Shown: positions 18,695-32,812, counted from the stretch's first letter. The stretch is 64,000 bases of DNA from Candidatus Latescibacterota bacterium (GCA_965219995.1 CBDCOX010000002.1:896001-960000); one strand, 5' to 3'. Numbers and translations are program-made. Notes: generated by a model from the letters alone, not told the origin.

Positions 18695-19585
18695 ATGCGT
18701 ATATCGGCAACGGGATTGACAAAAGTCTATCCGAAGGGGACTGTACCCGCGCTGAACAACGTCGACCTGGAAATTGGACGGGGAACGTTCGGTCTGCTGG
18801 GCCCGAACGGCGCCGGAAAAACCACGCTGATCAAGGTTCTTTCAACGCAGATGGCGCCAACGGCCGGCCAAGTCAGAATTGGCGCCTGGGACCTGCAGCG
18901 AAACCGTTCCGAAGTGCGGCGGCGGCTGGGCTACCTTCCCCAGCACTTCGGAGCGTATCCGCAACTGACGGCGTGGGAATTTCTGGACTACATGGACCGG
19001 CTGGCAGCCGGGCGACGTCGGATCGGGCGGAGGGCGCGAGTGCGTCGTGCGCTCGAAAACGTGGGGCTTTACGACGCGCGGGACCGACGGACCGGCACTT
19101 TTTCCGGTGGAATGATGCGGCGGCTCGGGATTGCCCAGGCCATTGTCGGCGATCCGGAAATCCTGATTGTGGACGAGCCCACCGTGGGGCTCGATCCGGA
19201 AGAACGCATCCGTTTTCGAGGGATTCTCGCTCGACTGAGCCGGGACAGGACAATCCTGATTTCCACCCATATCGTCGGCGATGTTTCGAGCACCTGCGAC
19301 GACCTGGCGGTGCTGAATGAAGGGCGGATCGTCTACAGGGGGTCGCCCGATGCCCTCGTCGCTCGTGCGGATGACAAGACCTGGCGGGTACGGGCGGACG
19401 ACTCGGAGTTCGAGACGATATCCCGGCGATTTCTGGTTGTGACGGTCGCTGTGGACGGCGGGCGAATGGACCTCCGGTTCGTGGGCGACGGCCACCCGCC
19501 CGCCCACGCCGAACCGGTACCGCCGAACCTCGAAGACGCATACGTGTACTTTATGGGCCGGGAGAGTCAGGAAAGGGCGGCGTAG
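18695..19585 (+). CDS. ABC transporter ATP-binding protein (ABC-2/DrrA type)
   Basis: GPNGAGKTT, GYLPQ, FSGGM, VDEPTVGLD, STH, LEDAY. Confidence 0.93.
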   Translation: MRISATGLTKVYPKGTVPALNNVDLEIGRGTFGLLGPNGAGKTTLIKVLSTQMAPTAGQVRIGAWDLQRNRSEVRRRLGYLPQHFGAYPQLTAWEFLDYMDRLAAGRRRIGRRARVRRALENVGLYDARDRRTGTFSGGMMRRLGIAQAIVGDPEILIVDEPTVGLDPEERIRFRGILARLSRDRTILISTHIVGDVSSTCDDLAVLNEGRIVYRGSPDALVARADDKTWRVRADDSEFETISRRFLVVTVAVDGGRMDLRFVGDGHPPAHAEPVPPNLEDAYVYFMGRESQERAA

Positions 19586-19588
19586 GCC

Positions 19589-30300: not shown

Positions 30301-32096
30301 CCATCCTGATGACAACGGCCACGACGCTTCTGGGCGTTCTTCCACTGGCGCTCGAATACGGCGGCGATTTTGAGATCTGGCCACCTTTCGCAATTACCGT
30401 TCTGGGCGGGCTTTCGGTATCCATGGTCTCCACGCTGATCCTGATTCCGGTGGTATACATGGGGCTGGATCAGATCCGCGCCTGGCTTGCCGACATGGGG
30501 GTTATTGCCGTCACGCTGTCGCTGCTGGCGACTGCCGCGGCCGGCTACGGAGTTTACGTCAGGTATGAAAGCGTTTTCTGGGCTACTCTGTCGATTTTAC
30601 CCATCTGGTGTGCATTTCTTACGGCGGTATGGATCGTCCTGAGGGTACATCGCGCTCGAGTCGCAGCCCGGCGCGCATCCGGCGCCGTTCATTCCATTCA
30701 GCTGAGAAATCTTACCAAGGTTTACGGCGCGCCGGGGCGCTTTGTACGGGAGTGGGCACGCAATGAGCGCCGGCGAGGGCGGTTGATGGAAACCGGGCCG
30801 GGTCCACATGACCGCAAGGCGGTTCGTGACGCGCTCATCTGGAAGCTGCCATTGCTCGCGCTGTTATCGGTCTTCACGACCTATTTCGAGGACGAAATCT
30901 GGATCTATCTACACGGGCTGGCGCTGGCATTCATGCTTTGGCACGTGGGTCGATGCGTCGGAGAACTGAGGGAAACGCAATTTCCGGCGCCGATCGCCCG
31001 CATTGGCAATCTGCTGCTCAAAACCGTGCTGCCATTGACGTTTGTCGCTTATGTGCACTGGCGGCTGAACCTGCTCTCGGTCACGCTTGCCTCGTTCGGG
31101 CTATGGGCGGCCTATCGGCTGGTGCGGCGGCTCGCCGACAGGGTGCGTTCGGGGGAGATCAATCCCGACGGACTGTCCGGACGTTTCGCGCGGCCGCGCC
31201 GGTGGTGCTATCGGTTGGCCTCGGCCATGCCGATCGTCGGCGTTCCCCGGCCGGAATTTCGGGCGCTGGCGGGCGTCAATCTGGAAATCGGCAGGGGGAT
31301 GTTCGGACTTCTGGGTCCCAATGGCGCCGGAAAGACCACACTGATGCGCATTCTCTGCCGGGTACTCGAACCCAGCTACGGCTCCATTCTGATCGACGGT
31401 CGAAACATCCTGAATCGGGAGTCGATTCACGGTCTGATTGGCTACCTGCCGCAGCACTTCGGCAACTACGGACACCTTTCCGCATACGAGTATCTGGAGT
31501 ACCGGGCGCTTCTGGAGGGCTACAAGGACCGGAAAACCCGCGACGCCCGGGTGATCGAATCTCTGGAACAGGTCAATCTGATCGAACGGAAAGACGATCC
31601 CGTCGGCTCCTTTTCAGGCGGAATGAAGCAGCGCCTCGGCATCGCTCAGACCCTCCTGCACACCCCGCGGATCGTGGTGGTGGACGAGCCCACGGCGGGG
31701 CTCGATCCCCTGGAGCGCATCCGGTTCCGAAACCTGCTTGCCAGGTTGAGCCAGGATCGCATTGTCATTTTCTCCACGCACATCGTGGAAGATATCTCCG
31801 GTAGCTGCAATCGCCTGGCAGTGCTGGACCAGGGGTGTCTTCTGTATACGGGAACGCCGGTGGAAATGAGGAATCTGGCGAAAGGACGGGTGTGGGACGC
31901 GGTGGTTTCGGAGGGGCGCTTTTCCGGGATGGAGGACGAACTGAGGCTCATATCACATCAGCGAACCCCCGCTGGAGTCCGGATGCGGTTCCTCTCGGAA
32001 CACGCACCGGTCGGTATCGGCGCGGAAAGCGTGGACCCAACCCTGGAAGACGCGTACCTGTACCTGCTTGGCGGAGGGGAGGGACAACCGTGCTGA
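27384..32096 (+). CDS. RND efflux permease fused to a C-terminal ABC ATPase domain
   Basis: Full RND (GMLADNGIVVMENI, GIAVNNGIILID, RVRPILMTT), extra TM helices, then an intact NBD (GPNGAGKTT, FSGGMKQR, VDEPTAGLD, STH) in one 1570-aa ORF; GTGA overlap with the upstream RND gene. Confidence 0.92.
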   Translation: MILPDLAVRRPVTTSMFFAAFAILGIVSWTRLPVQLFPELIFPEVFVTLSLQGASPEQVERDLLIPVEGEIGKLDGVQEMESFAMANRGGIRISYAPDVDMKFALLQLQSNLNRLQPTLPERTQSDVRRFDSTDLSSSIMELHVLADWDLNPLREFTEEKIRPKLESVDGVVNVSVLGGRRSAVEIVLDPFLLEAHGLSTGQVRARLNSYNRRREYLGRVYEGNRAYSVSIQGQFTDLRQIRDLVLNADGTLRLGDVSRVGFGLQDQADRHRVNGRPSVGVRIQKDDEANLIEVAAAVEAAIGRLNRDFASEGVELGVSSSQADLMTGALSTLKQAAIAGAVLGLIVLFLFLRNLRFVSVLLLAIPISLLMTFNLMYLGGLSVNVLSLCGLALAMGMLADNGIVVMENIFKHYERGKSPADAARDGAAEVGRAVVAATATTVTAFLPVLFIESDARDLLRELALSMAFPLLASLLVALTLVPALAVRALSRGVRQPPDVRGLLERYTLLLKTALRHRASVVLSAGVALALTLVLAFFYLLQQQVRREETRFTVYVNLPEGATLDATDEVVKQVEASVRDVPGLDRFTTSVREAEADVNVLLDRRSDRPGGISLDEIKEQLDDKLQNVQGGVVGYEPRPRAGRGGRGQGIGQRRRRSSGGFDLTGATPNEQVVVRGYDFTILTMIANDLVYRLEELEEVDANSVRADAERSSPEVQVIPDAAALFDRRLGAQEVLAAMGDTRWDGFRTTVPFLLPDATEVPIEVRTIEEEERDRYGLAEFRRSRILNRDGHFVPLSEVARVRTDEGRSSLLRTDQTRRIVVSYRFPSEILDSQPRLDLARRVVRTTLQDMVLPEGYSIEIIEAHEEMIYYWMMAIAAVLIYMILASLFESFASPVIILCTLPPAAIGSCWALMMSGTGLSQQEGPMALLGFIVLLGIAVNNGIILIDAVGVLRTRFGFRRERAVLTAARSRVRPILMTTATTLLGVLPLALEYGGDFEIWPPFAITVLGGLSVSMVSTLILIPVVYMGLDQIRAWLADMGVIAVTLSLLATAAAGYGVYVRYESVFWATLSILPIWCAFLTAVWIVLRVHRARVAARRASGAVHSIQLRNLTKVYGAPGRFVREWARNERRRGRLMETGPGPHDRKAVRDALIWKLPLLALLSVFTTYFEDEIWIYLHGLALAFMLWHVGRCVGELRETQFPAPIARIGNLLLKTVLPLTFVAYVHWRLNLLSVTLASFGLWAAYRLVRRLADRVRSGEINPDGLSGRFARPRRWCYRLASAMPIVGVPRPEFRALAGVNLEIGRGMFGLLGPNGAGKTTLMRILCRVLEPSYGSILIDGRNILNRESIHGLIGYLPQHFGNYGHLSAYEYLEYRALLEGYKDRKTRDARVIESLEQVNLIERKDDPVGSFSGGMKQRLGIAQTLLHTPRIVVVDEPTAGLDPLERIRFRNLLARLSQDRIVIFSTHIVEDISGSCNRLAVLDQGCLLYTGTPVEMRNLAKGRVWDAVVSEGRFSGMEDELRLISHQRTPAGVRMRFLSEHAPVGIGAESVDPTLEDAYLYLLGGGEGQPC

Positions 32097-32812
32097 ACTG
32101 GCGGGAATTGCTGCTGACCACGTGGCGGCTCTATCGGCTGAGCTGCAGGATCATATTCCACAGGAAGCTGATGTTCATGGGCATCGGCCTTCTCGTCTAT
32201 TACACCGCCATGTACGCATTCGCGGTGTGGCGCCCCGACGAGGGGTTCGGCGTGTCGCAGGCGCTCAACGTTCTGGTTGAAATCCCCGGTATTGCGCTTG
32301 CCATTTATCTGACGATGGACCTCGTTGCGGGCGAACGGGACCGGAATACACTTGAAACCCTTTTCAGCACAACCTCTACGCACTACAAGATCTGGACGAT
32401 CCGGATGGTGGGGGTGTATCTGGTTCTGGCGGCGACCCTGATGGGGATGACGGTGGTCGCCTATTTCGTCTTCGCCGAACTTCCAATCTTCCGGGGCGGG
32501 TTGAATGCCTTTCTGCCGGCCTGTCTTGCCGCCGGGCTCACGTTTTACTTCTCCGTTCTCTGCCGAAGCGGCAACGCGGCCGCGATGCTCGCGACCGGGG
32601 CGATGGTCCTTGCTCTGGTCGTTTCGAAGTCCATGCCCGATTCTCCCTTCGTGCTCTTTCTGGATACGTTCGATCCACCGGTGGGCATGGAAGACACGCT
32701 CTGGGGCGACCGTGTCCTGCTGAATCGTCTGGCCGTCGTGCTGCTGTCGGGCTTCCTGCTGTTTATCGGCCTGCGCAGGATGGAAGCACGAGAGCGGCTT
32801 GTGTCTTCGTAG
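32090..32812 (+). CDS. ABC-2 type permease
   Basis: About 6 TM segments, GERDRNTLETLFST coupling-helix-like motif; GTG start overlaps the upstream stop. Confidence 0.75.
   Translation: MLNWRELLLTTWRLYRLSCRIIFHRKLMFMGIGLLVYYTAMYAFAVWRPDEGFGVSQALNVLVEIPGIALAIYLTMDLVAGERDRNTLETLFSTTSTHYKIWTIRMVGVYLVLAATLMGMTVVAYFVFAELPIFRGGLNAFLPACLAAGLTFYFSVLCRSGNAAAMLATGAMVLALVVSKSMPDSPFVLFLDTFDPPVGMEDTLWGDRVLLNRLAVVLLSGFLLFIGLRRMEARERLVSS

Follow-up and report, generated by a model that had tools for sequence, protein, structure and literature searches.

An RND permease fused to a membrane-interrupted ABC ATPase: a conserved Latescibacterota gene cluster for a putative composite envelope exporter

Tripartite efflux pumps of the resistance-nodulation-division (RND) type and their ATP-binding cassette (ABC) counterparts are treated as alternatives with different energy sources. 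A gene cluster in a 64,000-nucleotide stretch of DNA from Candidatus Latescibacterota bacterium (GCA_965219995.1 CBDCOX010000002.1:896001-960000), hereafter called the window, raises the question of whether both types can be wired together in one polypeptide and what kind of exporter this would yield. On the plus strand of the window, positions 18695-32812 hold six co-oriented genes for a free ABC ATPase (NBD-A, for nucleotide-binding domain), a big ABC permease, a periplasmic adaptor, an RND permease (RND-1), a second RND permease continued by a further ABC ATPase (RND-2::NBD, with the ATPase part termed NBD-B) and a small ABC permease. We find the fusion to be genuine and conserved together with its gene set, and we lean towards a composite two-stage envelope exporter as its probable meaning.

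The fused gene (27384-32096, plus strand) encodes 1570 amino acids without an internal stop and is present in a single copy in this genome. It had been described by an earlier reading of the window, made from the DNA alone and referred to here as the sequence-only reading, and the two Pfam domains anticipated there are both matched, ACR_tran at residues 5-1027 (E 2.6e-181), which is the full-length RND part, and ABC_tran at residues 1297-1438 (E 6.8e-28). A single frame free of stops spans RND-2 and the C-terminal part in 28/28 loci fetched from independent assemblies, 14 of them at 79-91% and 14 at 39-65% identity. The junction is also crossed, with 0 gaps, by contigs that stem from two other studies, one (X6) with 3271 nt over 29069-32339 and the other (X7) with 2000 nt over 29260-31259; no insertion or deletion is listed inside the fused gene in the 4 public runs compared. 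The fusion is genuine and not an assembly artefact. A search with residues 1030-1570 as query, limited to proteins of 863-2748 aa, showed that the best 120 clusters listed are nearly all ~1550-1620 aa long and combine PF00873 with PF00005 at identities down to 39%, such that the fusion architecture at ~1570 aa is found in more than 100 protein clusters among the matches listed. Their database names are automatic ('efflux RND transporter permease subunit', 'AcrB/ABC-type ... ATPase subunit') and the taxon labels on the records are Latescibacterota, Gemmatimonadota, Acidobacteriota and KSB1.

The gene order, which the sequence-only reading had proposed to look for in other genomes along with the architecture, is equally constant. 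In 14/14 close and 14/14 wider loci the sequence is NBD-A, big permease, in some cases an outer-membrane factor gene, adaptor, RND-1, RND-2::NBD and small permease, with the 10-kb flank of the close loci ending within the big permease. Within the phylum, a match bearing the linker that joins RND-2 to NBD-B was found in 82 of 168 genomes; with the window's own genome excluded, 72 of 81 reside in frames of at least 1500 aa, and the other 9 are on fragmented contigs or contain a stop. The periplasmic domain of the big permease occurs in 79 of the 168 genomes and both features occur in 75. Fusion and big-permease domain are thus found together in 75 of the 86 genomes having either, a co-occurrence that was counted by hand and is given with no statistic since related genomes are not independent. 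All 11 discordant genomes are drafts of at least 150 contigs, among them G016, in which the permease is in fact present (locus L057). A sample of 301 Bacteroidota genomes, chosen as the phylum of a Cyclobacteriaceae record, yielded one fused form with a frame of 1576 aa and a free NBD 13 kb upstream, in a search that fused forms more diverged than E 1e-92 would escape.

How the two parts are joined is answered in the same way by an alignment of fused with free NBDs and by an AlphaFold2 (AF2) model of residues 1030-1570, built for these 541 aa from a 32-sequence alignment (predicted local distance difference test, pLDDT, 79.3; predicted TM-score, pTM, 0.56). RND-2 comprises residues 1-1029 (27384-30470) and is followed by six extra membrane helices that connect it to NBD-B, four of them inserted in the ATPase past its first strand. 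The first two, TM13 and TM14, come after TM12 of the RND part (residues ~1040-1097, 30501-30674) and correspond to AF2 helices 11-32 and 35-68 of the 541-aa model. Next is a β-strand (30693-30725; 75-85 in the model) that aligns with the N-terminal strand of free NBDs and contains a K..Y pair, K83 and Y85 in 541-aa numbering, which is invariant in the 32 sequences and takes the A-loop position by alignment to NBD-A. Beyond this strand come first an amphipathic helix (RF.REW), then four helices in the membrane, TM15-18, and finally a return helix (residues ~1119-1281, 30738-31226; AF2 helices 90-108, 112-137, 142-167, 173-199, 202-226 and 237-252) before the second strand and Walker A are reached. 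The rest of NBD-B with a C-terminal regulatory-type domain and the stop codon is located at 31257-32096. NBD-B is therefore not a contiguous NBD fold as described by PF00005, because its first strand (~1104-1114) is parted from the second strand and Walker A (~1292-1319) by ~165 residues that include the four modelled membrane helices.

Six residues of the linker module (W37, W95, R100, W124, W144 and P188 in 541-aa numbering) are invariant in the 32 sequences. Residues 1030-1290 as query matched only the fusion family, with 48 representatives among 1.84 billion at E<=0.001. Eighteen of these 48 have a length of 1550-1590 aa with the module at ~1020-1290, and we take most of the others to be fragments, as four of the six that were examined are incomplete or garbled at the end. 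Match P0145 starts with M and has an N-terminus that looks unrelated, while P0166 comprises 526 aa and starts with M at the TM13 position. At G063:C46:104670-105926, a 435-aa open frame matches the C-terminal part solely from residue 114 onwards, and it is possible that P0166 and this frame are split or stand-alone forms of the membrane-inserted NBD. A search of the ESM Atlas with the linker gave no usable match. Foldseek with the C-terminal model retrieved TM_1403 (4yer, E 6.3e-22), NosF and ABCA4, all of them matching the NBD, and nothing that matched the helical bundle.

Which ABC transporter could NBD-B belong to? NBD-A (18695-19585, 296 aa) is an ATPase of the DrrA/GldA-like ABC-2 class (Pfam ABC_tran E 8.7e-32; NCBIfam drrA E 3.2e-59 and GldA E 3.8e-51, both under cut-off), and it is 45% identical to NBD-B, each being the other's best paralogue in the genome. 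Both contain Walker A (GPNGAGKTT), the Q-loop (GYLPQ), the FSGGM signature, Walker B (VDEPT) and the H-loop (STHI), in agreement with the intact motifs credited to them by the sequence-only reading. These motifs, including the catalytic Glu of Walker B and also the D-loop, are invariant in the 32 fused sequences and present in NBD-A. The small permease (32090-32812, 240 aa, ~6 membrane helices) gives weak matches to ABC2_membrane_2 and ABC2_membrane_3 (Pfam E 7e-4, below cut-off) and is a distant homologue of the membrane domain of the big permease (hhalign 85.6%, E 5.6e-6, 215 columns). When the fused C-terminal part was modelled in complex with the small permease, a score of 0.68 was obtained, with 0.00 for the best of 3 controls; 58 of 80 solved complexes score this high, as do 2 of 110 mismatched pairs, a calibration that is rough with alignments of our own. 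Contact agreement between runs was at least 93% and the pLDDT of the partner at least 74. In the model, the small permease docks on NBD-B with its N-terminal helix and residues 85-101 facing the Q-loop and helical subdomain of the NBD, which would be the usual ABC-2 dock. The two permeases may be members of the six-helix ABC-2 (type V) class; their Pfam matches are sub-cut-off in both cases, and the score of the dock model possibly arises by likeness to solved transporters.

RND-1 (24304-27387; the frame opens with GTG at 24271 and ATG at 24304 is the likely start) and RND-2 are encoded by tandem, overlapping paralogous genes. ACR_tran is covered by RND-1 from profile position 3 to 1020 of 1021 (E 3.3e-224) and by RND-2 from 3 to 1019 of 1021, so that the latter is a full-length 12-helix permease of the PF00873 family. 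Within the genome, no paralogue comes closer to RND-2 than RND-1 (37% identity), and the best solved relative of RND-2 is MdtB (9lyq). Neither protein reaches the cut-off of 1250 bits for NF033617, the NCBIfam model of a multidrug efflux RND permease subfamily (RND-2 522, RND-1 624.5). An alignment with AcrB, MdtB and MdtC from an annotated record of Escherichia coli K-12 served for assessing the proton relay. In AcrB numbering, RND-1 features D407 N408 N940 D941 R971 T978 and RND-2 D407 N408 N940 N941 R971 T978, in 18/18 cases each. The equivalents of D407 in TM4, R971 in TM11 and T978 are thus kept by both RND proteins throughout, and neither has the AcrB-type relay (D407, D408, K940, R971). 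The fused subunit, unlike RND-1, has no TM10 aspartate, and a loss of proton coupling was considered and dropped because the complete RND-2 pattern (D/N in TM4, N/N in TM10, R in TM11) also exists in 4 of the 10 other, unfused RND paralogues of the genome, with N/N in TM10 of a fifth as well. With the variants recurring in unfused paralogues, the non-AcrB relay is the sign of a separate RND subgroup rather than of a dead pump. An Arg/Gly-rich low-complexity stretch is present in RND-2 at window positions ~29300-29400 (residues ~640-672) in a region predicted to be periplasmic.

The big ABC-2 permease (19589-22951, 1120 aa) had been noted in the sequence-only reading for a very large extracytoplasmic domain. 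Hydropathy and an AF2 model (pLDDT 72.6) indicate ~7 N-terminal membrane helices followed by ~830 aa of extracytoplasmic domain and a C-terminal Golvesin_C β-sandwich (Pfam Golvesin_C E 2.7e-15; ABC2_membrane_3 E 1.2e-6, below cut-off). Foldseek relates the extracytoplasmic domain to IRAP and ERAP (IRAP 4p8q: E 2.5e-18, 644 columns, low TM-scores of 0.32/0.40), pointing at an M1-aminopeptidase-like fold, and Pfam Peptidase_M1 is matched below cut-off (E 0.0012). M1 zinc aminopeptidases are characterized by the HExxH zinc site and the GxMEN exopeptidase motif. Both are missing in all 15 big-permease orthologues (0/15), which rules out an active peptidase, and because of this absence the M1-like domain is predicted to be a binding or scaffold domain, not an enzyme. 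Arg/Gly-rich low-complexity segments, likewise predicted periplasmic, are found at 22900-22948 and ~21650-21720, and the big permease of one relative has a long Gly run at a position matching a low-complexity stretch.

The adaptor (22996-24072) starts with TTG at 22996 and has a signal peptide and a lipobox (MAGC). It surpasses the cut-off of NCBIfam TIGR01730 RND_mfp by far (190.4 versus 94.9 bits), also matches Pfam HlyD_D23 (E 6.8e-25) and is thus an adaptor of the tripartite type, in accordance with its earlier description as a membrane fusion protein (MFP) lipoprotein. Where does the matching outer-membrane channel come from? In 8/8 distant loci with a gap between the big permease and the adaptor, a gene for an OEP/TolC protein fills that gap (PF02321, E 8e-39 to 1e-48). 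The fuller form of the cluster therefore consists of seven genes and specifies a complete trans-envelope pump. The statement of the sequence-only reading that the operon has no TolC-type gene applies to this window and does not hold in general; the clade of the window is without this gene in the cluster. The genome contains 14 OEP domain matches in 7 open frames, all outside C2:896001-960000.

The six genes were found as open reading frames in the same direction with several abutting or overlapping junctions, as had been seen before; the term six-gene operon, which was used along with it, needs a caveat. At four of the five junctions stop and start abut or overlap. The NBD-A stop and the ATG of the big permease are 3 nt apart, the TGA of RND-1 overlaps the GTG of RND-2, and the TGA of the fused gene overlaps the GTG of the small permease, where a Shine-Dalgarno sequence is present. 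The exception is a gap of ~230 nt between adaptor and RND-1 that harbors a GC-rich terminator- or attenuator-like hairpin followed by seven T (24180-24229, from sequence and fold). Of 14 genus-level loci, 13 retain the hairpin and a run of five to eight T at this position, the inner stem having undergone changes, and the hairpin is missing in 5 of 6 more distant loci examined, in which the gap is 0-77 nt. A simple terminator scan did not list the adaptor/RND-1 hairpin and the fold of the whole gap is no better than that of shuffles (z -0.45). The cluster may consist of two transcription units, or be attenuated, and the hairpin may set the ratio of the ABC and adaptor genes to the RND genes.

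With moderate confidence, we read the cluster as encoding a composite two-stage envelope exporter in which a tether links an ABC-2 stage with an RND stage resembling MdtBC. The first stage would be an ABC-2 (type V) exporter made of NBD-A, NBD-B and the big and small permeases, and the second a heteromeric, MdtBC-like RND pump of RND-1 and RND-2 with the adaptor lipoprotein and an outer-membrane channel, the latter encoded within the cluster in distant relatives and presumably elsewhere in the genome in the present organism. The six extra helices leading from TM12 of RND-2 to NBD-B, four of which are placed between strand 1 and the Walker A region, would form the covalent tie. We presume that the ABC stage spends ATP on bringing an amphiphilic substrate out of the cytoplasm or inner leaflet to the periplasmic face, that the RND stage, which would remain proton-driven, collects it there and expels it via adaptor and channel, and that the tether ensures co-assembly and hand-over. 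Should the RND trimer have a 2:1 composition like MdtB2C, one tethered NBD per trimer could pair with one NBD-A, which would fit the gene count. The sequence-only reading had counted exactly two NBDs and two transmembrane domains (TMDs) and assembled them into one heterodimeric ABC transporter on a tether. The parts list and the link between ABC and RND components stand. A single heterodimeric transporter is plausible because the NBDs are mutual best paralogues, the membrane domains of the permeases are homologous and the small permease is modelled on NBD-B. The six extra helices constitute a third membrane module that had been overlooked.

Several points weigh against the composite exporter. 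The window itself contains no OEP/TolC gene. Genes 1-3 and genes 4-6 need not be made in a fixed ratio because the terminator-like hairpin divides the cluster in this genus. P0166 may be a stand-alone form of the C-terminal part. The score of the complex model may reflect likeness to solved ABC-2 transporters, and in the model the small permease has no confidently predicted contact with the inserted helices. Paralogous pairs of NBD-A and big permease, at 64% and 49% identity, occur in two genomes (L071 and L072) without an RND gene; at L071:2636-13222 the pair is followed by genes for glycosyltransferases of families 4 and 28. As such pairs exist without an RND partner, NBD-A and the big permease may act alone as a homodimer, and the cluster may accordingly hold two separate ABC modules. 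An exchange of substrate or energy between the ABC and RND parts is hypothetical. The RNA runs X19 and X20 contain only small shares of the stretch, with contigs from a relative covering parts of the fused gene in X19, and no claim on expression is drawn from these libraries, which can contain DNA. For the nature of the substrate, the surroundings of the paralogous pairs provide a weak lead to a glycolipid or another glycoconjugate.

Could the two parts share more than a substrate? Somewhat doubtful, yet worth considering, is one export machine with two energy sources, in which ATP turnover at the split, membrane-embedded cassette would be mechanically coupled to RND proton flux via TM13-18, gating or driving the RND cycle or the hand-over. 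If true, tripartite efflux pumps would thereby have their first primary/secondary hybrid, and ABC ATPases their first member whose fold contains membrane helices. Going further, closure of NBD-A and NBD-B might be passed on through TM13-18 to the membrane domain of RND-2 and replace protons or add to them, resulting in an ATP-driven or ATP-gated RND pump. Such a pump appears unlikely to us. In its favor, the NBD is wired to the membrane beside RND TM12 by a structured module with invariant residues (pLDDT 79) and not by a floppy linker, this module is shared with no other protein family, and RND-2 has no TM10 Asp, kept by RND-1 in 18/18. However, the relay pattern of RND-2 is common to 4/10 unfused paralogues, with N/N in TM10 of a fifth, and the model places a canonical ABC-2 permease in the coupling groove of NBD-B, which would be an ordinary job for an ATPase. 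Moreover, we know of no ATP-driven RND protein.

We consider it just as improbable that two functionally independent transporters are merely co-localised, i.e. a proton-driven tripartite RND pump and one or two ABC-2 exporters, possibly one homodimer of NBD-A with the big permease and another of NBD-B with the small permease, the fusion serving assembly, stability or stoichiometry instead of transport. The NBD-A/big-permease paralogues that do without RND partners in glycosyltransferase clusters, the hairpin that divides the cluster in this genus and the self-sufficient look of every domain would suit this arrangement. It is opposed by the retention of fusion and full gene set at 39-91% identity in 28/28 loci and 75/86 genomes as well as in one Bacteroidota genome, a constancy that is hard to explain unless the parts depend on each other functionally. 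A frameshift, misassembly or read-through of two adjacent genes has a negligible chance of being the explanation, contradicted as it is by the single frame in 28/28 loci from independent assemblies, by the gapless contigs of two other studies with no indel listed and by a linker that is conserved and includes part of the NBD fold.

The surroundings of the cluster are of a different kind. Upstream, at 10745-18578 on the plus strand, metabolic genes encode a DMFA2_C-like protein, a homocysteine S-methyltransferase, a thiamine pyrophosphate enzyme, a DAO oxidoreductase and a RidA-like protein. On the opposite strand downstream of the cluster, a CdaA-type diadenylate cyclase is encoded at 32860-34212 (minus strand) and adjoins the cluster in 14/14 close loci. 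It is followed by a gene for a 1222-aa protein with FG-GAP/PQQ-type β-propeller repeats (34885-38553, plus strand). The G+C content falls to 0.548 at 38001-40500, compared with ~0.62 elsewhere; this dip surrounds an HTH_17/MerR-like gene (38804-39466, minus strand) and an open reading frame of 317 aa without Pfam match (39534-40487, minus strand) and may be a small foreign insert. Window positions 29800-31800 are contained in runs labelled as sponge, coral and marine metagenomes. Since X6, a sponge-metagenome run, and X7, a marine-metagenome run, both contain long near-identical pieces, the organism or its close kin appear to live with marine invertebrates.

As to novelty, the cluster combines known domains of tripartite efflux in a covalent arrangement that is undescribed in the literature searched. 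The sequence-only reading knew of no characterised example, and our search, covering literature other than supplements and subscription journals, likewise found no published RND-ABC fusion; in public databases, the proteins carry nothing but automatic names. Those passages of a review (PMC8277102) that speak of fused, hybrid or chimeric systems contain no RND-ABC fusion. The family wires RND and ABC pump types in one polypeptide and has kept this wiring across wide divergence, in much of one phylum and also outside it. If the stages hand over substrate, it would offer a natural, covalently fixed model for the debated cooperation of inner-membrane and trans-envelope pumps, single-component pumps having been described as feeding trans-envelope pumps in PMC4338810. 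Were ATP to act on the RND cycle, current ideas about the energisation of RND pumps would change. The insertion of membrane helices in an ABC cassette is a structural oddity in its own right, and the system could be expressed as a six- or seven-gene cassette.

Among known systems, MdtABC-TolC shares with the cluster a pair of tandem RND paralogue genes whose stop and start overlap and which lie downstream of a single adaptor gene, and the MdtB and MdtC models are the best equivalog models for both RND proteins studied here, at scores far below their cut-offs. No Mdt subunit has an ATPase or extra helices, however, and the relay is DD/K in MdtB and MdtC as opposed to DN/ND in RND-1 and DN/NN in RND-2. 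The MdtB2C heterotrimer is described in PMC4462101 with a B2C stoichiometry and a division of labour; a 2:1 trimer may likewise form from the tandem, overlapping paralogue genes of our cluster. MacAB-TolC shares with it the combination of an ABC engine, a periplasmic adaptor and a TolC-type channel, and a permease with a large periplasmic domain. According to PMC8277102, MacB has an N-terminal NBD, 4 membrane helices and a fold of its own. The organization found here is another one: the permeases are of the ABC-2 type, the big permease has ~7 helices and a C-terminal, M1-like large domain instead of four helices with the periplasmic domain between TM1 and TM2, each NBD is either separate from the big permease or fused to an RND protein, and an RND pump is added.

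ABC-2/type V exporters (NosFY, Wzm-Wzt and the ABCA/ABCG class) come closest with respect to the ABC parts, as the NBD fold with its C-terminal domain is nearest to TM_1403, NosF and ABCA4 and the modelled dock engages the Q-loop side of the NBD through the N-terminal helix of the permease and a short loop helix. In none of them, however, is an NBD fused to an RND permease or broken by membrane helices. A possible parallel for the break is the regulatory insertion of CFTR NBD1, which may likewise separate the first NBD strand from the second; that insertion is short, soluble and disordered, whereas the insertion in NBD-B measures ~165 residues and contains four membrane helices. An ATPase and a membrane protein linked to the proton motive force cooperate on one substrate in the ArsAB pump. 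The same holds for the Sec holotranslocon, where SecDF, an RND-superfamily protein powered by the proton motive force, is placed beside SecA in PMC8277102. In both systems, however, the partners are joined non-covalently and the ATPases are of unrelated types, with neither an ABC cassette nor a tripartite channel, as opposed to the covalently fused RND-ABC cluster of Candidatus Latescibacterota.

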